Shown: piece after piece, positions 37,387 to 50,983 of the stretch
Numbering within the stretch: the first letter of the stretch is position 1
Layout of the letters: each line of letters begins with the position of its first letter
Assembly (NCBI RefSeq): GCF_044324785.1
Contig: NZ_CP172127.1
Reading direction: 5' to 3' (one strand)
From: Escherichia coli
Lineage (GTDB): Bacteria > Pseudomonadota > Gammaproteobacteria > Enterobacterales > Enterobacteriaceae
DNA length: 64,000 nucleotides
Notes under the pieces: generated by a model
Seen by the model: only the letters and a program-made list of their open reading frames with translations
The model's database searches: none
What the model was told of the DNA's origin: nothing
Translations under genes and position numbers: made by a program

Positions 37387-38652
37387 ATGGCTTCTACTTT
37401 TACCAGCGACACATTGCCTGCCGATCACAAAGCAGCTATCCGTCAGATGAAGCACGCGCTGCGGGCGCAGCTTGGCGACGTCCAGCAGATCTTTAATCAG
37501 CTAAGCGATGACATTGCCACGCGAGTGGCTGAAATCAACGCACTCAAAGCACAGGGCGATGCCGTCTGGCCGGTGCTGTCTTATGCCGATATCAAAGCAG
37601 GTCATGTTACTGCAGAGCAGCGCGAACAAATTAAACGTCGCGGTTGTGCGGTGATAAAAGGCCATTTCCCCCGCGAACAAGCGCTAGGCTGGGATCAGTC
37701 GATGCTGGACTATCTGGACCGCAACCGCTTTGACGAGGTCTACAAAGGCCCCGGCGATAATTTCTTCGGGACACTCAGCGCTTCACGTCCCGAGATTTAC
37801 CCCATCTACTGGTCGCAGGCGCAAATGCAGGCCCGCCAGAGTGAAGAAATGGCGAATGTGCAGTCGTTTCTCAATCGTCTGTGGACATTTGAAAGTGATG
37901 GAAAGCAATGGTTTAACCCGGATGTGAGCGTCATCTACCCTGACCGTATCCGCCGCCGTCCGCCCGGAACGACCTCCAAAGGTCTTGGAGCGCATACCGA
38001 CTCCGGGGCGCTGGAACGCTGGCTGCTTCCAGCGTATCAGCACGTTTTCGCCAACGTCTTTAATGGCAATCTGGCGAAATACGATCCCTGGCATGCGGCA
38101 CATCGTACGGAAGTTGAAGAGTACACGGTGGACAACACCACCAAATGTTCCGTGTTTCGGACATTCCAGGGCTGGACAGCGCTCTCTGATATGCTGCCTG
38201 GTCAGGGGTTGCTGCACGTCGTGCCCATTCCTGAAGCCATGGCGTACGTACTGTTACGTCCGCTGCTTGATGATGTGCCGGAGGATGAACTGTGCGGCGT
38301 AGCGCCCGGAAGAGTGTTGCCGGTATCAGAGCAATGGCATCCACTGTTAATTGAGGCGTTAACCAGCATTCCAAAACTCGAGGCCGGAGACTCCGTCTGG
38401 TGGCACTGCGACGTCATCCATTCCGTTGCCCCCGTTGAAAATCAACAGGGTTGGGGCAACGTGATGTACATTCCTGCGGCACCGATGTGCGAGAAAAATC
38501 TTGCCTACGCGCACAAGGTGAAGGCCGCACTGGAAAAAGGCGCATCGCCGGGCGACTTCCCGCGCGAGGACTATGAAACAAACTGGGAAGGACGCTTTAC
38601 GCTTGCCGACCTCAACATTCACGGTAAGCGAGCGTTGGGAATCGACAGCTGA
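37387..38652 (+). CDS. ybiU: YbiU, DUF1479 protein (2OG-oxygenase-like), 421 aa
   Basis: ORF from MASTFTSDTLPADHKAAIRQMKHALRAQL... matches YbiU. Confidence 0.85.
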   Translation: MASTFTSDTLPADHKAAIRQMKHALRAQLGDVQQIFNQLSDDIATRVAEINALKAQGDAVWPVLSYADIKAGHVTAEQREQIKRRGCAVIKGHFPREQALGWDQSMLDYLDRNRFDEVYKGPGDNFFGTLSASRPEIYPIYWSQAQMQARQSEEMANVQSFLNRLWTFESDGKQWFNPDVSVIYPDRIRRRPPGTTSKGLGAHTDSGALERWLLPAYQHVFANVFNGNLAKYDPWHAAHRTEVEEYTVDNTTKCSVFRTFQGWTALSDMLPGQGLLHVVPIPEAMAYVLLRPLLDDVPEDELCGVAPGRVLPVSEQWHPLLIEALTSIPKLEAGDSVWWHCDVIHSVAPVENQQGWGNVMYIPAAPMCEKNLAYAHKVKAALEKGASPGDFPREDYETNWEGRFTLADLNIHGKRALGIDS

Positions 38653-39722
38653 GTGTCGTACAGCCCTTCCCGTTCCACGGCGGTGTTCCCTTTTCCTGGG
38701 CGAACCCGCCGCACTGACTCCCGCACCGCCAATCGTCCGTGCAGCAGCAGCGAGCCCACCGGAGCATCCGGGCGAATCAGCCGCTGTTGCAACATTTGCA
38801 CCGCTTCATTGCCTAGCTCATCGCGTGGCACATGCACAGCCGTCAGGGGAACATCCTCGATTGCCGCAAGGTTAAAGCCGTCGATACTCATCACCGAGAC
38901 ATCCTGTGGTACGCGCAGACCACGACGATGTAGCGCATTTACCGTTCCCGCCGCCATAAAATCCCCGCCGACCAGAAACGCCGTCGGCAACGTCTTGCCA
39001 TTGGCGGCATCCAGCCACGCTCCGACCTTTTCTTCCGCTTCTTTAGCGCTAAAACTGCTGATATTCAGCAAATGACGGTCATGGTGAAAGGCCAGATTAT
39101 GCTGACGCCATGATTCTTTAATCCCTGCAAACCGCTGCTCCATAGTGTAGCGGCGCAGGCACATCACATTCATCACCTCCCGGTGACCCATTTCAAACAG
39201 ATAGCGGGCGGCGAACGCGCCAATTAACCGATGGTCCGGCGCAATCGCCGGGAGGCGCATTCGTTCATCACGGCAGTTGATCAGCACACAAGGCTTAGCG
39301 AGATCGGCGGCCAGATCATGGATGTGCGGATCGTCAATCCCCAGCAGGATCGCCGCCTGCGTATCTGCTTCATTCATCCGCGAGAGAAATAGCGCGGGAT
39401 CGCTGTCAAACTCCTCCAGCGCGCAGTAACGCAGCCGCACTTCATGCGGCGATAACGCTTTGCTGATGCTCTGGATCACACGGTAATAAAAGATATCAGA
39501 TCGTTGGTCAAAAGCGCGTTGCGGCGCGAAAATAATCAGGTTGTTCAGCAACATACGACCTGCTGCCATGCCATCCATCACGCCCAACTCACGCGCGCAG
39601 GCCAGCACCTGTTCGCGAGCGCGTGCACTGGTATTCGCTTTGCCAGCCAGCACCCGCGAAACCGTACTCGGCGATAGCCCGGTACGTGCGGCGATATCGG
39701 CGATTTTCAGCTTCTTGTCCAT
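38619..39722 (-). CDS. LacI-family transcriptional regulator (accessory, not in K-12 at this position), about 367 aa with an unusually long C-terminal tail
   Basis: MDKKLKIADIAARTGLSPSTVSRVLAGKANTSARAREQVLACARELGV... is a LacI-type HTH followed by a periplasmic-binding-protein-like sugar domain; its 3' end overlaps the ybiU 3' end by 34 nt. Confidence 0.7.
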   Translation of the reverse strand: MDKKLKIADIAARTGLSPSTVSRVLAGKANTSARAREQVLACARELGVMDGMAAGRMLLNNLIIFAPQRAFDQRSDIFYYRVIQSISKALSPHEVRLRYCALEEFDSDPALFLSRMNEADTQAAILLGIDDPHIHDLAADLAKPCVLINCRDERMRLPAIAPDHRLIGAFAARYLFEMGHREVMNVMCLRRYTMEQRFAGIKESWRQHNLAFHHDRHLLNISSFSAKEAEEKVGAWLDAANGKTLPTAFLVGGDFMAAGTVNALHRRGLRVPQDVSVMSIDGFNLAAIEDVPLTAVHVPRDELGNEAVQMLQQRLIRPDAPVGSLLLHGRLAVRESVRRVRPGKGNTAVEREGLYDTQLSIPNARLP

Positions 39723-40016
39723 TTTGTGATCTGCCTCTAATTCGGAAATGACAGAATTTTCATGAGCAAAAAAGCCCATTCTGTCTGGCATTAAATCCAT
39801 TTCAGTAATGTATATCAGTCACTCATGGAAAAACGTGCACAAAACCCGCTTTCTTTCGCTTTTAGGGTCTCTTACTGTGAATTGGTAGAACAACTTCCAT
39901 ACAAAAATAATGGAAAAACGAACAACAAAGACTTTATTTATCAAAAAGTTAAAAGTGGTGTGACAACTCCATTCTGACGTTGCCGCACAAACCCTATACC
40001 ATTCTGTGGAGTGCAT
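39723..40016. promoter_or_regulatory. Divergent control region between the LacI-family regulator and the MFS-GH31 genes
   Basis: 294-bp AT-rich, ORF-free intergenic region between divergently oriented genes; position inferred, no operator identified. Confidence 0.4.
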
Positions 40017-41318
40017 ATGAGTCAGGGTATCAATAACGATATGACTGCCAGTAAACCGCGCCATATCGTCAAAAATCTGCGTTGGTGGATACTGGTCCTT
40101 TTTTTGCTCGGTGTTACTGTCAACTACATCACGCGTAACTCGCTGGGTATTCTCGCCCCCGAACTGAAAAGCAGCCTGGGGATTACCACCGAACAATATT
40201 CCTGGATTGTAGGTGCTTTCCAGCTCGCCTATACCCTATTCCAACCGTTGTGCGGATGGCTGATTGACGTCATTGGCCTCAAACTGGGCTTTATGATCTG
40301 CGCGGGACTGTGGGCACTGGCCTGTCTGATGCATGCGGGGGCGGGAAACTGGGTACATCTGGCGCTGTTGCGCTTCTTTATGGGCGGTGCGGAAGCCGCA
40401 GCAACCCCAGCAAACGCCAAAACCATCGGTGAATGGTTTCCAAAATCAGAACGCCCGATCGCCGCAGGCTGGGCAGGCGTCGGTTTTTCCATCGGTGCCA
40501 TGCTGGCCCCACCGATTATCTATTTTGCCCACGCTTCATTCGGCTGGCAGGGTGCATTTATGTTCACTGGCATCCTGGCGATGCTGTGGGTCGTGCTGTG
40601 GTGGGCGTTCTATCACAGCCCGGATAAGCATCCTAACCTCAGCAAAGCCGAGCTGGACTTTATTCGCCAGGATAACGAAGCGCCCCCGGTCAAGTTACCC
40701 TTTCTGACCGCACTGAAAACCGTGGGCAAAAATAAACGCTTTTACGGTATCGCTATCCCGGCCTTTATGGCAGAACCGGCGTGGGCGGTGATGAGTTTCT
40801 GGGTTCCGCTATACCTGTCCAAAACCTATGGCATGGACCTGAAGCAGATCGCATTATTCGCCTGGTTGCCGTTCCTCGCCGCTGATCTTGGCAGTATTGC
40901 CAGCGGCTATCTGACCAAACTTTACACCCGCCTGTTTGGGCTGAGTCGTGTGAACTCCGTTGTCGCATCATCGGTCAGTGGCGCATTCCTGATGGTTTCG
41001 CTGGCGGTGATGGCCTTTACCAATAACCCGTATATCGCCATCGTCCTTATCTCCATCGGCGGCTTCGGTCACCAGATCATCTCCTGCATGCTAAGCGCAC
41101 TGGTGGTGGAATCCTTCGACAAAGGTCAGATGGCCACTGTTAACGGCATGCGCGGTTCTGCCGCGTGGATCGCAAGTTTCCTGTTCTCCCTGATAATCGG
41201 GGTTACCGCAGACAAAATCGGCTTTAACCCCCTGTTTATCGCCATGGGCTTCTTTGACCTGATTGGCGCTTTCTTCCTGGTCACCTTTATTGCTGAACGT
41301 CGCGCAAAACGCGCCTGA
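40017..41318 (+). CDS. MFS transporter resembling the anion:cation symporter family (ExuT/GudP/DgoT-like), about 433 aa
   Basis: 12-TM ORF with N-terminal sequence ...NYITRNSLGILAPELKSSLGITTEQYSWIVGAFQLAYTLFQP typical of ACS-family transporters; RBS ggag 6 nt before the ATG at 40017. Confidence 0.7.
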   Translation: MSQGINNDMTASKPRHIVKNLRWWILVLFLLGVTVNYITRNSLGILAPELKSSLGITTEQYSWIVGAFQLAYTLFQPLCGWLIDVIGLKLGFMICAGLWALACLMHAGAGNWVHLALLRFFMGGAEAAATPANAKTIGEWFPKSERPIAAGWAGVGFSIGAMLAPPIIYFAHASFGWQGAFMFTGILAMLWVVLWWAFYHSPDKHPNLSKAELDFIRQDNEAPPVKLPFLTALKTVGKNKRFYGIAIPAFMAEPAWAVMSFWVPLYLSKTYGMDLKQIALFAWLPFLAADLGSIASGYLTKLYTRLFGLSRVNSVVASSVSGAFLMVSLAVMAFTNNPYIAIVLISIGGFGHQIISCMLSALVVESFDKGQMATVNGMRGSAAWIASFLFSLIIGVTADKIGFNPLFIAMGFFDLIGAFFLVTFIAERRAKRA

Positions 41319-41332
41319 GAGTGGATGTAAAC

Positions 41333-43696
41333 ATGAAAACGCTGAAAAACTGGACCCTGCACAAACAGTCTGCCCACCACGTTGAACTGCTGGTCGATGG
41401 CCAGCATATCCTGTGCCTGTACGTGCTGGAAGAAAATCTGTTCCGCGTGCTGTTAAAACGCAAAGGCGAGCTGGCGCTGGATCGCACCTGGAGCATTGCT
41501 CCGGCGCAGGATGTGCCATGGGAAGGGCGCAGCCGCGAAGATCTCAGCGGCTTTAGCCTGCCCGCGTGGACATTGATCCAGCACGACGACACCGTGGTTA
41601 TCGCCACCGAGTCACTGCGTGTCACCGTTCACCAGCCGCTGTGGCTGGAGTGGCACTATCGTAACAACGAAGGCGAATGGCTGCCGTTGGTGAATGACCG
41701 CCCGACCAGCGCTTATCTGCTGAATGCCCACGGCGATGGCGTGGCACACTATCAGAGCCGTCGTAAAGATGAACGCTTTTATGGCCTCGGAGATAAAGCC
41801 GGCGACCTGCAACGCAACGGTAAACGTTACGAGATGCGTAACCTCGACGCGATGGGCTACAACGCCGTTAGTACTGACCCGCTGTACAAACACATTCCAT
41901 TCACCATCACCCGCCGCGATGACATTAGCTTCGGCCTGTTTTATGACAACCTCAGCAGCTGCTGGCTGGATCTGGGCAACGAGATCGACAACTACCACAC
42001 CGCCTATCGCCGCTGGCAGGCGGAAGCGGGTGATATCGACTACTACCTGTTTACCGGCGAACGCGTACTTGATATCACCAAAGCCTTCGTACGCCTGACC
42101 GGAAAAACCCTGTTCGGACCGAAATGGAGCCTGGGCTACAGCGGTTCAACTATGCACTACACCGATGCGCCGGACGCACAAAATCAGTTGATGAACTTTA
42201 TCCGCCTGTGTGAAGAACATGCAATTCCCTGCGATTCGTTCCAGCTCTCTTCCGGTTATACCTCAATTAACGGCAAACGCTATGTGTTCAACTGGAACTA
42301 CGACAAAGTGCCGCAGCCGAAAGTGATGAGCCAGGCATTTCACAATGCTGGTTTGCACCTGGCCGCCAATATCAAGCCGTGCCTGTTGCAGGATCACCCA
42401 CGCTATAACGAAGTGGCAGAAAGAGGACTGTTCATCCGTGATTCAGAAACAGATGAACCAGAACGTTCCAGCTTCTGGGATGACGAAGGTTCTAACCTCG
42501 ACTTTACTAATCCGCAGACCATCCAGTGGTGGCAGGAAGGCGTGACCACACAGCTTCTGGAGATGGGTATCGACTCCACCTGGAACGACAACAACGAATT
42601 CGAAGTATGGGACGGTGAAGCACGCTGTCACGGCTTTGGTCAGACGATCGCGATCAAACATATTCGCCCAGTGATGCCACTGCTGATGATGCGAGCCTCG
42701 ATGGAAGCCCAGCAGCGTTTCGCTCCGGAAAAACGTCCGTACTTGATCTCCCGCTCCGGCTGCGCGGGAATGCAGCGCTACGTGCAGACCTGGAGTGGCG
42801 ATAACCGCACTAGCTGGGACACTCTGCGCTACAACACCCGCATGGGTCTGGGGATGAGCCTCTCCGGGTTGTATAACCTCGGTCACGACGTCGGCGGTTT
42901 CTCCGGTGATAAACCGGACCCGGAACTGTTTGTACGCTGGGTACAAAACGGCGTGATGCATCCGCGCTTTACGATTCACTCATGGAACGATGACCATACC
43001 GTAAACGAACCGTGGATGTATCCGGGCGTCACTCCGGCGATCCGCAGCGCTATTGAGTTGCGCTATCGCCTGCTGCCCTACTTTTATACCCTGATGTGGC
43101 AGGCATACGCCGATGATGAACCAATGCTACGTCCGACTTTCCTTGACCACGAGCACGACGTTCAGACTTTTGAAGAGTGTGATGACTTCCTGCTTGGTCG
43201 CGATATTTTGGTTGCCAGCGTCGTAGAGCAAGGCGAGCGCCAGCGCCGTGTATGGCTGCCAGATAACGAAACTGGCTGGTACGATTTCTACAACGGCGAA
43301 TGGTTCAGTGGCGGTCAGTGGATCACCCTCGACGCACCGCTGGAGAAACTGCCGCTGATGGTGCGTGCCGGGGCTGGTCTACCGCTCAGCAAACGCATCA
43401 CCTATGTGAGCGCAGAACAAGACGATACCCGCGAACTGAAACTGTTCCCGCTGAAAGGTGTGGGCACAACGTCCGGCCTGCTGTTTGAAGACGATGGCGA
43501 AAGCTGGGGCTACCAAACTGGTAATGCGCTTTGGGTGGAATGGGAAATGGTTTGCGATGGGGCGACCATCAACCTGAAAGTCAACGCGCGCGGGGATTAT
43601 CGTCCTGCATGGAGTGCACTGAAAGTGTCATTACCATTGGAAGAAAAACGCACGCTGCTGGTCAATGGTGTTGAAGGGAGTGAATGGATGCGTTAA
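41333..43696 (+). CDS. Glycoside hydrolase family 31 alpha-glycosidase (about 787 aa)
   Basis: Carries GH31 hallmark motifs: TWNDNNEF (catalytic nucleophile region), RSGCAGMQRY...WSGDN (acid/base region), GHDVGGF; tightly linked (2-14 bp) downstream of the transporter. Confidence 0.75.
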   Translation: MKTLKNWTLHKQSAHHVELLVDGQHILCLYVLEENLFRVLLKRKGELALDRTWSIAPAQDVPWEGRSREDLSGFSLPAWTLIQHDDTVVIATESLRVTVHQPLWLEWHYRNNEGEWLPLVNDRPTSAYLLNAHGDGVAHYQSRRKDERFYGLGDKAGDLQRNGKRYEMRNLDAMGYNAVSTDPLYKHIPFTITRRDDISFGLFYDNLSSCWLDLGNEIDNYHTAYRRWQAEAGDIDYYLFTGERVLDITKAFVRLTGKTLFGPKWSLGYSGSTMHYTDAPDAQNQLMNFIRLCEEHAIPCDSFQLSSGYTSINGKRYVFNWNYDKVPQPKVMSQAFHNAGLHLAANIKPCLLQDHPRYNEVAERGLFIRDSETDEPERSSFWDDEGSNLDFTNPQTIQWWQEGVTTQLLEMGIDSTWNDNNEFEVWDGEARCHGFGQTIAIKHIRPVMPLLMMRASMEAQQRFAPEKRPYLISRSGCAGMQRYVQTWSGDNRTSWDTLRYNTRMGLGMSLSGLYNLGHDVGGFSGDKPDPELFVRWVQNGVMHPRFTIHSWNDDHTVNEPWMYPGVTPAIRSAIELRYRLLPYFYTLMWQAYADDEPMLRPTFLDHEHDVQTFEECDDFLLGRDILVASVVEQGERQRRVWLPDNETGWYDFYNGEWFSGGQWITLDAPLEKLPLMVRAGAGLPLSKRITYVSAEQDDTRELKLFPLKGVGTTSGLLFEDDGESWGYQTGNALWVEWEMVCDGATINLKVNARGDYRPAWSALKVSLPLEEKRTLLVNGVEGSEWMR

Positions 43697-43875
43697 ATCA
43701 TTACCGGGGCCGGGAGGCGACTGCACCTTACCCGGTCCAGCCATCGAATCCTTTACCTCAGTATTTCACGCTGCAGGAAGGCAGCAAACCTGTAAACCCC
43801 GGGAGCTTAAATAAGTAAGTGACCGGGGTGAACAGGTGAAGCCAATGCATCTGCCGCATGAAAGACGGCGGGGAA

Positions 43876-45471
43876 TTAACCGTCGATCCCTTTACTACGC
43901 AGGTAATCTTCGTAATTACCGCTAAAGTCAATAACGCGTTCCGGGGTGATTTCCAGAATGCGGGTCGCCAGGGAGCTTACGAACTCACGGTCGTGTGAAA
44001 CAAAGATCAGCGTGCCCTGATACAGTTCCAGCGCCATGTTCAGCGACTCGATGGATTCCATATCCAGGTGGTTGGTCGGTTCGTCCATGATCAGAATGTT
44101 CGGCTTCTGCATCATTAACTTACCAAACAGCATCCGCCCTTTTTCCCCACCGGAAAGCACTTTCGCTGGTTTTTTGATGTCGTCCTGGCTGAACAGCAAA
44201 CGACCGAGAATGCTGCGTACCGCCTGCTCGTCATCGCCTTCCTGCTTCCACTGGCTCATCCATTCGAACACGGTCAGATCATTTTCAAACTCATATTCGT
44301 GGTCCTGAGCATAGTAACCAATGCGCGCGTTTTCAGACCATTTTACGGTGCCGCTGTCCGGTTGCAGATCGCCCACCAGCGTTTTCAGCAGCGTTGATTT
44401 ACCGACGCCGTTGGTACCCAGTACCGCAAGTTTTTCACCGACCTCCAGCAGCAGGTTGAGATTTTTAAACAGTGGACCGTTATCAAACCCTTTGGTCAGA
44501 CCTTCCACTTCCAGCGCGTTACGGAACAGTTTCTTATCCTGTTCAAAACGGATGAACGGGTTCTGACGGCTGGAGGCTTTCACCTCTTCCAGTTTGATTT
44601 TATCAATCTGGCGCGCGCGCGAAGTTGCCTGGCGAGATTTCGAGGCGTTGGCGCTAAAGCGGCTAACGAAAGATTGCAGCTCAGCAATCTGCGCTTTCTT
44701 CTTGGCGTTATCAGCCAGCAGACGTTCACGCGCCTGGGTCGCCGCCGTCATGTACTCATCGTAGTTGCCCGGATAAACGCGCAGCTCGCCGTAATCCAGA
44801 TCCGCCATATGGGTACAAACCATGTTAAGGAAGTGACGGTCGTGCGAGATGATGATCATGGTGCTGTCACGCTCGTTCAGCACCTGTTCCAGCCAACGAA
44901 TGGTGTCGATGTCGAGGTTGTTGGTCGGTTCGTCGAGCAGGAGAATGTCTGGATCAGCAAAAAGCGCCTGTGCCAGCAGCACACGCAGCTTCCAGCCAGG
45001 AGCAACTTCACTCATCGGGCCGTAGTGCTGTTCCACTGGAATTCCCACGCCAAGCAACAATTCACCGGCGCGAGCTTCCGCAGAGTAACCGTCCATTTCG
45101 CCGTATTTCACTTCCAGATCGGCCACTTTATAGCCGTCTTCTTCACTCATTTCCGGCAAAGCATAGATGCGGTCACGCTCCTGCTTCACTTCCCACAACT
45201 CTTTATGCCCCATGATCACCGTATCCAGCACAGTGAACTCTTCAAAGGCAAACTGATCCTGACGCAGCTTACCAATGCGCTCGTTGGGATCGAGGGAAAC
45301 GTTACCCAACGTCGGCTCTAAGTCGCCGCCGAGGATCTTCATAAAGGTGGATTTACCACTACCGTTCGCGCCAATCAGGCCGTAACGGTTGCCGCCGCCA
45401 AATTTGACGGAAATGTTTTCAAACAACGGCTTACTGCCGAACTGCATGGTGACGTTACTGGAAACTAACAC
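43876..45471 (-). CDS. ybiT: ABC-F family ATPase YbiT (tandem ABC domains), about 530 aa, GTG start
   Basis: (M)[41 protein letters not shown]... two ABC cassettes without a TM domain; matches YbiT. Confidence 0.9.
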
Positions 45472-50467: not shown

Positions 50468-50983
50468 TTAGAAGCGGTAACCAACACCGGCAATCCAGGT
50501 GCCTACGTCAACGCTACGAATACGGCTCTGCTCGTAAGAGAAGTCCAGAGCAACGTTTTCCATCGGGTTGAACTGCAGACCAGCACCGTAGGAGAAACCG
50601 TAGTCGCTGGTGTCGTGTTTGTAGGTCGGGTATTCAGTGGTCTGGAATTTACCATAACCCACACCCACTACACCGTAGATGCTTGCCCAGTCGTTAATGC
50701 GGTAAGCCGGACCAGCAGTGATGCCGTAGTACTGGTTTTTGTTGTAGTCACCAGAGCTTGCAGTACGGCTTTTCTCGGTGTAAGTGAAAGAACCGATCAC
50801 ACCCAGCGGGCTGTTGTCTTCTTCATAGCGGTATTTCAGGTTGAAACCGCCCATTTTGTTCATTTGGCCCTGAGCGTCGCTCTGTGCGTAACCGCCAGTT
50901 ACGGTAGAAGTCGCAGCTACGGAAGTACCTGCGGTGAAAGCCAGAACTGCGGCCAGTGCTGAAAGACATGCAATTTTTTTCAT
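50468..50983 (-). CDS. ompX: Outer membrane protein X (171 aa)
   Basis: MKKIACLSALAAVLAFTAGTSVAATSTVTGGYAQSDAQGQMNKMGGFNLKYRYEEDNSPLGVIGSFTYTEK...IAGVGYRF matches OmpX including the C-terminal Phe. Confidence 0.95.
   Translation of the reverse strand: MKKIACLSALAAVLAFTAGTSVAATSTVTGGYAQSDAQGQMNKMGGFNLKYRYEEDNSPLGVIGSFTYTEKSRTASSGDYNKNQYYGITAGPAYRINDWASIYGVVGVGYGKFQTTEYPTYKHDTSDYGFSYGAGLQFNPMENVALDFSYEQSRIRSVDVGTWIAGVGYRF

Follow-up and report, generated by a model that had tools for sequence, protein, structure and literature searches.

A candidate alpha-glucuronide utilization locus with a GH31 glycosidase between ybiU and ybiT of Escherichia coli

Some strains of Escherichia coli carry, between ybiU and ybiT, three carbohydrate-utilization genes that are missing from K-12. 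What do these genes allow the cell to use? We addressed this question in a 64,000-nucleotide stretch of contig NZ_CP172127.1 (assembly GCF_044324785.1), here called the window. The locus comprises three full-length open reading frames (ORFs): a LacI-family regulator gene on the minus strand and, divergently on the plus strand, genes for a major facilitator superfamily (MFS) transporter and a glycosidase of family GH31. A sequence-only reading of the window had assigned these identities, including the anion-symporter type of the transporter, and had described a repressor facing a tight tandem operon. Pfam and NCBIfam matches uphold the identities, and the gap between the MFS and GH31 genes is 14 nt. 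These are real genes rather than chance ORFs, since orthologues of 75 to 91% identity occur in dozens of genera. RefSeq places the same three genes between ybiU and ybiT in a 99.6% identical strain, under generic names only.

Judging from the sequence, we give an even chance to the following reading: the locus would be a self-contained module for the use of an alpha-glucuronide, a small and anionic glycoside of D-glucuronic acid, and the GH31 enzyme would be a retaining alpha-glucuronidase. A glucuronate-containing anionic alpha-glycoside is indicated by the homology of the transporter, a charge reversal near C6 in the GH31 active site, the glucuronate operons in which relatives of the enzyme are found, and a hexuronate-regulon box in the promoter region.

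The GH31 enzyme and its clade

The GH31 gene (positions 41333 to 43696, plus strand) encodes 787 amino acids with no obvious signal peptide at the N terminus. A Pfam scan returned GH31-type domains only (PF01055, 4.6e-88; PF13802, 5.6e-37; PF21365, 1.4e-22; and DUF5110). The best NCBIfam match, to the alpha-glucosidase MalA (6.9e-91), scored 305 bits against a cut-off of 800, and the alpha-xylosidase model gave 230 bits against a cut-off of 606. By sequence, the nearest solved chains were the alpha subunit of endoplasmic reticulum glucosidase II (1e-79) and Flavobacterium FjDex31A. An AlphaFold2 (AF2) model built from a 36-sequence alignment (predicted local distance difference test score [pLDDT], 93.5; predicted template modeling score [pTM], 0.94) was matched by Foldseek to 6jr6 and glucosidase II with template modeling (TM) scores of 0.88 and 0.85, respectively, at 25 to 26% identity. 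No PDB structure above 26% identity was found among entries up to April 2026. The view that the hydrolase has no close characterized relative was thus borne out: identity to the E. coli paralogues was 28% for YihQ and 25% for YicI, no characterized enzyme exceeded 90%, and the three genes were not found in K-12.

The enzyme shares the four-domain GH31 fold with glucosidase II and FjDex31A, and its nucleophile D419 (in WNDNNE) and acid/base D490 (in WSGDN) correspond in alignments to the catalytic Asp pair of both and of YihQ (D405 and D472). Domains (TIM-barrel catalytic, N-terminal mutarotase-like, and C-terminal beta-sandwich), fold, and catalytic pair all place it in GH31. In Chaetomium glucosidase II (CtGII), glucose in subsite -1 is recognized by Asp443, Trp554, Asp662, and His691, and its 6-OH reaches Asp482 and Trp517 via water (PMC9061262). 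The correspondence of these positions to the E. coli enzyme was inferred from hand-counted spacings (39, 35, and 37), which agree with a HMMER alignment to mouse glucosidase II. The CtGII nucleophile and acid/base are kept as D419 and D490, as are four of the six glucose-contacting residues (Trp517 as W382, Trp554 as W417, Asp662 as D519, and His691 as H549); R474 is likewise conserved. The other two contacts, both acidic, are replaced, Asp443 by S306 and Asp482, which contacts the 6-OH, by K348. In place of the classical alpha-glucosidase signature (the equivalents of Asp443 and Asp482 together with WNDMNEP), the enzyme has Ser306, Lys348, and WNDNNEF. The AF2 model has S306 and K348, like the catalytic Asp residues, at the C-terminal ends of its predicted strands, and we read these strands as those of a TIM barrel. 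K348 would place beside C6 the cationic side chain that a C6 carboxylate would need.

The same replacements mark a large clade. A search of 1.84 billion cluster representatives followed it to approximately 30 to 35% identity, and about 100 of the best 150 cluster representatives at 50% identity were members. Confirmed members numbered at least 584 stretches in metagenomes and, when species were scanned through one representative genome each, at least 597 stretches. Three motifs distinguish the clade from classical enzymes: (F/Y)xLS-SGY in place of WxD-I(D/E), N(I/V)KP in place of I(I/V)DP, and WNDNNE(Y/F) in place of WNDMNEP. Classical alpha-glucosidases recovered in the same search retain LD, I(I/V)DP, and WNDMNEP. 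D419 and D490 are invariant within the clade. In all 78 full-length metagenome proteins, so are S307, G308, N346, K348, P349, W382, W417, N420, and R474. The search for solved structures turned up none from the clade.

Two types can be told apart. The S306/H549 type includes the E. coli enzyme and all uronate-linked loci. The G306/N549 type comprises 11 proteins (loci L095, L096, L140, L146, L148, L149, L160, L163, L164, L171, and L174), in which Lys348 is retained. Several of these 11 loci have CUT1 ABC transporters, the others have other neighbors, and none has uronate genes; this sister subclade probably has a different specificity.

Transporter, operon context, and regulatory DNA

The MFS gene (positions 40017 to 41318, plus strand; 433 amino acids) encodes a paralogue of ExuT, the K-12 hexuronate transporter (43% identity over 414 residues; E value, 7e-120). 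Among proteins of solved structure, it is closest to the galactonate transporter DgoT (6e9n; 1e-38), and it matches TIGR00893, the model of the anion:cation symporter (ACS) subfamily, at 4.5e-79, below that model's cut-off of 395 bits. By sequence it belongs to the ExuT subgroup of the ACS family, and its closest characterized relative is an acid-sugar transporter. The sequence-only reading had likened the operon to yicJ-yicI and yihO-yihQ. The likeness holds for the pairing of a GH31 gene with a transporter gene, which in yicJ-yicI also lies directly upstream, but the transporter here is an ExuT paralogue. YicJ and YihO belong to the glycoside-pentoside-hexuronide (GPH) family, and it is by family that the MFS protein is set apart from them. 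The closer functional analogy is the hexuronate/glucuronide system.

At every Enterobacterales locus, the MFS gene is directly upstream of the GH31 gene. A Paraburkholderia GH31 homologue (48% identity) follows an ExuT-like MFS gene as well, whose product is 46% identical to the E. coli transporter. ACS transporters and tripartite ATP-independent periplasmic (TRAP) transporters imply a carboxylate on the imported molecule. Because the MFS protein is always coupled to a cytoplasmic glycosidase, its cargo should be a glycoside rather than free hexuronate, and we predict from its relatives that it is an anionic glycoside:H+ symporter.

Clade members recur among glucuronate genes. In eight Erwinia and Pantoea species, the MFS-GH31 pair occurs without the LacI gene. 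In seven of them it is divergent from uxaC, the position of exuT in K-12, and stands beside an ExuR/UxuR-like regulator gene; the eighth (L077) has the regulator only. uxuA was present in the one such locus whose gene calls were read.

A metagenome scan with the clade alignment yielded 80 further loci, whose neighbors were identified by ORF clustering and NCBIfam annotation. Separately, the short metagenome contigs of P0121, P0122, and P0124 held no useful context. Among the 80 loci, ACS-type MFS genes were found at 27 loci and LacI-family regulators at 21. Glucuronate isomerase UxaC (566 bits; cut-off, 387) and UxuR/ExuR-type regulators were found at 9 loci each, mannonate dehydratase UxuA (677 bits; cut-off, 200) at 6, and ManD (715 bits; cut-off, 550) at 4. 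A fructuronate-reductase-like UxuB, whose 365.5 bits are below the cut-off of 603, was found at 8. Other neighbors were TRAP permeases (5 loci), TonB-dependent receptors (TBDRs; 6 loci), and GH2 enzymes (6 loci). Among the architectures were TRAP-GH31-UxuB-UxaC, UxuR-x-MFS-GH31-porin, GH31 with UxuR-TBDR-UxuA-GH2, and ManD with UxaC-UxuB-Eda-KdgK-GH31, a complete glucuronate operon that ends with GH31.

A glucuronate gene or UxuR was present at 17 of the 47 non-enterobacterial loci of the S306/H549 type and at 0 of 11 of the sister type (Fisher P = 0.024). UxaC, UxuA, UxuB, or ManD made up 25 of 425 neighboring ORFs, by a rough estimate 60 times the frequency at a random genomic position. Among non-enterobacterial proteins, those most similar to the E. 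coli enzyme (53 to 64% identity) are nearly all encoded in TRAP-GH31-UxuB-UxaC operons. Since the partners are UxuA, ManD, and UxuB, not UxaA or UxaB, the glucuronate rather than the galacturonate branch is indicated.

Some loci had larger gene sets. At L123, L125, L126, L170, and L131, the GH31 gene accompanies genes for UxuR, a TBDR, a 435-amino-acid protein, UxuA, and a GH2 enzyme resembling beta-glucuronidase/beta-galactosidase, which suggests import of a larger glucuronate-containing glycan across the outer membrane. At L097 (9001 to 16905), where uxaC is a neighbor, a clade GH31 gene (46% identity) precedes genes for a PIG-L-type deacetylase, an MFS_2 transporter, and a hydrolase resembling GH63/MGH1; this set hints at a hexosamine-glucuronate glycan as the source.

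The regulator gene (positions 38619 to 39722, minus strand) encodes 367 amino acids from its probable start, MDKKLKIADIA, within an ORF spanning 38619 to 39800. The protein has the helix-turn-helix and periplasmic-binding-protein-like effector domains of the LacI/GalR family, and its orthologues carry PF00356 and PF13377. It gave full-length matches to the NCBIfam models of RbsR, CytR, and PurR, none over the equivalog cut-off, and PurR is the nearest solved structure (1e-20). The RefSeq start in the 99.6% identical strain corresponds to position 39779 and gives 386 amino acids. When the regulator-transporter spacers of 28 loci (28 genera) were aligned, conservation on the regulator side began at the ATG at 39722, so the RefSeq start is probably too far upstream. 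With that start, the operator-like palindrome described next would fall inside the coding sequence.

This palindrome, ATGACAGAATTTTCAT (positions 39748 to 39763; consensus ATGAAAANNTTTTCAT), lies 26 nt upstream of the probable regulator start. Matches to ATGAAAANNTTTTCAT at 12 or more of 14 positions were found upstream of the MFS gene at 69 of 71 loci with a LacI gene and at 1 of 10 without, against a background of 14 matches in 1.59 Mb. The palindrome thus co-occurs with the regulator, and from its sequence it is a credible operator of the LacI-family protein. A further 12/14 match, ATGCAATTTTTTTCAT at 50968 to 50983, is within the background rate. The 28-genus alignment contained a second block of conserved columns, ATGGAAAAACGTGCAC (39825 to 39840), which in E. 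coli agrees with the palindrome at 9 of 14 positions, as counted by eye.

Farther toward the operon, AATTGGTAGAACAACT (39880 to 39895), 137 nt upstream of the MFS ATG, matches at 12 of 14 positions AATTGGTNNACCAATT, which we take to be the UxuR/ExuR box consensus and which we then checked on K-12. In 10 kb of K-12 sequence, AATTGGTNNACCAATT had only three matches, two in the gntP-uxuA spacer and one upstream of uxuR; in the exuT-uxaC spacer nothing convincing was found at up to three mismatches, and more degenerate versions were seen by eye. AATTGGTAGAACAACT is the sole match with two or fewer mismatches in the window. Boxes matching at 12 or more of 14 positions occurred upstream of the MFS gene at 19 of 81 loci versus 2 in the remaining 1.6 Mb. 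The 19 loci include Escherichia, Kluyvera, Pseudocitrobacter, Atlantibacter, Serratia, Hafnia, Enterobacillus, Erwinia, and Pantoea; in Erwinia, the box occurs twice between uxuA and the MFS gene. By motif, then, the promoter region carries a box of the hexuronate-regulon type. The box overlaps a -35-like hexamer, TTGGTA, in the weak promoter-like site TTGGTA-18-AATAAT (39882 to 39911, plus strand), a consensus match only, of the MFS-GH31 operon. A sigma-70 promoter scan found 2 sites in the region versus 3.8 expected by chance, which is not significant, and a terminator scan likewise did not exceed chance.

Proposed pathway and competing explanations

In the pathway that we infer, from substrate and direction of transport to effector and regulator binding, the ExuT-like transporter would import the intact glycoside with protons, and the cytoplasmic GH31 enzyme would cleave it by a double-displacement (retaining) mechanism, with D419 as the nucleophile and D490 as the acid/base. 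The glucuronate moiety would occupy subsite -1, its C6 carboxylate accommodated by K348 and S306. Freed glucuronate would enter the chromosomal UxaC-UxuB-UxuA-KdgK-Eda pathway. The LacI-family protein would repress both divergent promoters through the site at 39748 to 39763 until the glycoside or a product binds, and the UxuR/ExuR box over the operon promoter would add hexuronate-regulon control.

Candidate aglycones are xylose (in aldobiouronates from glucuronoxylan), glycerol, and inositol. A xylan-derived aldobiouronate is an attractive substrate. Enterobacter asburiae JDR-1 reportedly ferments methylglucuronoxylose, to judge by a published title. The cassette occurs in E. asburiae (locus L020; 89% identity) and may underlie this fermentation. 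The cassette is also present in species for which we know of no such phenotype.

Such a module would have much in common with the gus/uid operon, which consists of UidA (GH2) and the UidB/UidC transport proteins under the control of UidR (TetR) and UxuR. Both would involve glucuronide import, cytoplasmic hydrolysis, delivery of glucuronate to the Uxa/Uxu enzymes, and a local repressor combined with a hexuronate regulator. The anomer would be the opposite one, since GH31 enzymes cleave alpha-glycosides, and GH31, ACS, and LacI proteins stand here where gus has GH2, GPH, and TetR proteins. With the hexuronate system itself (ExuT, UxaC/UxuB/UxuA, and ExuR/UxuR), the locus shares an ExuT-type transporter and a UxuR/ExuR-type box, but ExuT carries free hexuronates, whereas the locus adds a glycosidase and a dedicated LacI-family regulator. 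The known alpha-glucuronidases belong to GH67, GH115 (inverting), and GH4 (NAD-dependent). The predicted reaction, release of alpha-linked (methyl)glucuronic acid, is the same and would feed the same catabolic genes, whereas the GH31 enzyme would form a covalent glycosyl-enzyme and retain the anomeric configuration.

More tentatively, and at a little less than an even chance, the whole S306/K348/H549 clade may be an unrecognized family of retaining, covalent-intermediate alpha-glucuronidases, with an ancestral, UxuR/ExuR-regulon branch in Enterobacteriaceae that K-12 has lost. The clade enzymes, together with ExuT-like, TRAP, TonB-dependent, or ABC importers, would then provide a widespread, overlooked entry of alpha-glucuronides into the isomerase pathway. 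The sources would be xylan aldouronates and glucuronosyl-glycerol or glucuronosyl-inositol lipid head groups. If this is true, the clade would hold the first Koshland-type enzymes known to us for the alpha-glucuronosyl linkage.

Several points weigh against an alpha-glucuronidase. The activity would have no precedent: the literature searched yielded no GH31 alpha-glucuronidase and no mention of a GH31 glucuronidase, alpha-galacturonidase, or alpha-mannosidase. About half of the non-enterobacterial clade loci have no uronate gene, though many of the contigs are short, and in the sister subclade and at a few S306/H549 loci, CUT1 ABC transporters are used and the surroundings hold no uronate genes. 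Both mismatches of the E. coli UxuR box fall in its right half. The box is degenerate in Enterobacter, Klebsiella, and Citrobacter, so hexuronate-regulon control may not be universal. Finally, the uronate may be not the glycon but the aglycone.

This last possibility is the main rival, and we regard it as unlikely but deserving of weight. The substrate would be an acidic disaccharide, such as alpha-glucosyl-, alpha-xylosyl-, or alpha-hexosaminyl-glucuronate, from which the GH31 enzyme would remove a neutral alpha-linked sugar bound in subsite -1 and free glucuronate from subsite +1. Such a substrate accounts just as well for the links to ExuT-like and TRAP transporters and to UxuR/UxaC, and the PIG-L-type deacetylase and GH63-like enzyme at L097 hint at a hexosamine-uronate glycan. 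The explanations part at subsite -1. The invariant clade changes (Asp to Ser and Asp to Lys) fall on residues that contact the -1 sugar in glucosidase II, and a conserved uronate site at +1 would not need the loss of both -1 Asp residues. Moreover, the conserved partners serve glucuronate only, with no recurrent catabolic genes for a second sugar. Glucuronate is therefore favored as the glycon by the clade-wide changes in the -1 subsite and by glucuronate genes as the sole recurrent catabolic partners.

If the -1 sugar is acidic, it need not be glucuronate as such, and sulfoquinovose, an alpha-galacturonide, or a 4-O-methyl-glucuronide only would be other choices, which we consider improbable as a group. 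GH31 already includes, paired with the transporter YihO, an enzyme for an anionic C6-modified glucoside in YihQ, and R316 aligns with the sulfonate-binding R301 of YihQ. However, an Arg at this position is near-universal among the GH31 sequences aligned and is not diagnostic, W304 of YihQ falls in a gap, and Y508 is replaced by F523; the candidate anion-binding residues here, K348 and S306, occupy positions other than those of the YihQ triad. Sulfoglycolysis genes were not seen at the locus in the window or among the annotated neighbor clusters of 85 non-enterobacterial loci; for the 80 Enterobacterales loci, the neighbors searched for were of the ExuT/ExuR/UxaC/UxaA and Ybi types only. A sulfoquinovosidase was rejected on the missing counterparts of W304 and Y508 and on the gene content. 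UxaC, named D-glucuronate/D-galacturonate isomerase in K-12, isomerizes galacturonate too, but the recurrent partners UxuA, ManD, and UxuB belong to the mannonate branch. A preference for 4-O-methyl-glucuronic acid would be a sub-case of the alpha-glucuronide reading. Least probable, in our estimate, is an ordinary alpha-glucosidase or alpha-xylosidase for a neutral maltose-, isomaltose-, nigerose-, or isoprimeverose-like glycoside. MalA is the best NCBIfam match, though far below cut-off, glucosidase II and a dextranase are the nearest structures, and some sources name orthologues alpha-glucosidase or alpha-xylosidase. Yet the transporter is an ExuT paralogue of an anion:cation symporter family, neither of the Asp residues that lie toward O4/O6 of the -1 sugar is retained, whereas classical enzymes keep these motifs, and the glucuronate-operon contexts and the UxuR box also speak against a neutral substrate. 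A YicI-type alpha-xylosidase in particular is disfavored by the low identity to YicI, the subthreshold model score, and the motifs, which are HFD/INP in YicI and QLS/IKP in the E. coli locus enzyme.

An alpha-1,4-glucan lyase (cf. PMC12441222) was also considered and dismissed, as no lyase was recognizable among the PDB matches listed and the context is unrelated. A 2026 paper on lactulose in Salmonella, which mentions GH31 and uxa/uxu induction, appears unrelated to the locus. No description of the locus or of its three RefSeq proteins was found in the literature searched; CAZy may already number the clade as a subfamily, whether or not a member of it has been characterized.

Distribution and history of the ybiU/ybiT site

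On the left, the locus is bordered by ybiU (DUF1479; positions 37387 to 38652, plus strand), placed by the RefSeq annotation of the 99.6% identical strain and by alignment of the junction with a K-12-like genome. Its final five or so codons are unlike those of K-12, and it overlaps the 3' end of the LacI-family gene by 34 nt. On the right lies ybiT (ABC-F ATPase; 43876 to 45471, minus strand), placed by the ORF list and the same RefSeq annotation. Between the convergent GH31 and ybiT genes is an imperfect inverted repeat (43788 to 43837; 22 nt, 77% complementary, with a 6-nt loop and no T-run), a possible terminator hairpin.

A megablast search of 5,426 complete E. coli genomes detected the complete locus in 575. 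All copies were chromosomal, and none lay on a plasmid. In genomes that lack the cassette, ybiU and ybiT are adjacent, which agrees with its reported absence from K-12. A K-12-like genome has a spacer of about 240 bp, rich in repetitive extragenic palindromic (REP) sequences, in place of the 5.2 kb, and identity is lost a few codons before the ybiU stop and directly past the 3' end of ybiT.

Other states of the site were also seen. Many cassette-negative genomes (e.g., NZ_CP037943.1) have an IS110-like IS621 transposase gene in the REP-rich spacer. In E. coli 83972 (B2; NZ_CP058220.1, 3358998 to 3373115), ybiV is followed directly by ybiT, and both ybiU and the cassette are missing, a third state of the site. 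E. coli IH5 (NZ_CP168949.1) has a 978-bp operon fragment (query positions 1060 to 2037; 99.3% identity) in a record with three matching places; the fragment may be prophage borne, as a "Bbp16 family capsid cement protein" is among the features at the listed place.

The locus had been described as inserted between ybiU and ybiT, and the distribution among relatives speaks against this. We examined the best 80 of the at least 597 confirmed relatives from the species scan, all of them Enterobacterales. The LacI-MFS-GH31 cassette was present in about 70 of these species and adjoined ybiT-ldtB in about 60, most of which have ybiV-ybiU on the opposite side. Genera with the cassette at the ybiU/ybiT site include Enterobacter, Klebsiella, Citrobacter, Kluyvera, Kosakonia, Raoultella, Leclercia, Buttiauxella, and Cedecea, and it is found there in Salmonella enterica subsp. 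diarizonae, too. In the genera nearest to E. coli, the flanks have diverged about as much as the cassette (YbiU, 82 to 95% identity; YbiT, 91 to 97%; GH31, 84 to 91%). Since about 60 of 80 species share the site, the K-12 state is better read as a deletion than the strain as having gained the genes. The most parsimonious account is that enterobacteria carried the locus ancestrally and that most lineages of E. coli, K-12 among them, later lost it by deletion.

The cassette is found at other places in Serratia and Edwardsiella and therefore also behaves as a functional unit. In Edwardsiella tarda (L004, 10413 to 18367), it lies beside genes resembling the yiaK-S-type 2,3-diketo-L-gulonate/L-xylulose cluster (TRAP transporter, FGGY kinase, orotidine monophosphate decarboxylase-like, apurinic/apyrimidinic endonuclease-2-like, and class II aldolase), which may be a coincidence.

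If the alpha-glucuronidase prediction is true, a new activity would be added to GH31, recognizable by a simple signature: WNDNNE together with Ser and Lys in the positions of two Asp residues that lie toward C4/C6 in subsite -1. The alpha-glucuronidases would gain a mechanistically different, retaining family, useful for processing glucuronoxylan aldouronates and for making activity-based probes. The ybiU/ybiT site is then to be seen not as the home of an acquired island but as one where laboratory lineages have deleted an ancestral locus. For E. coli, the locus would be a strain-variable extension of the hexuronate regulon, carried by about 11% of complete genomes. The same extension would be present in most of the Enterobacter, Klebsiella, and Citrobacter species sampled and could matter for life in gut and plant niches.

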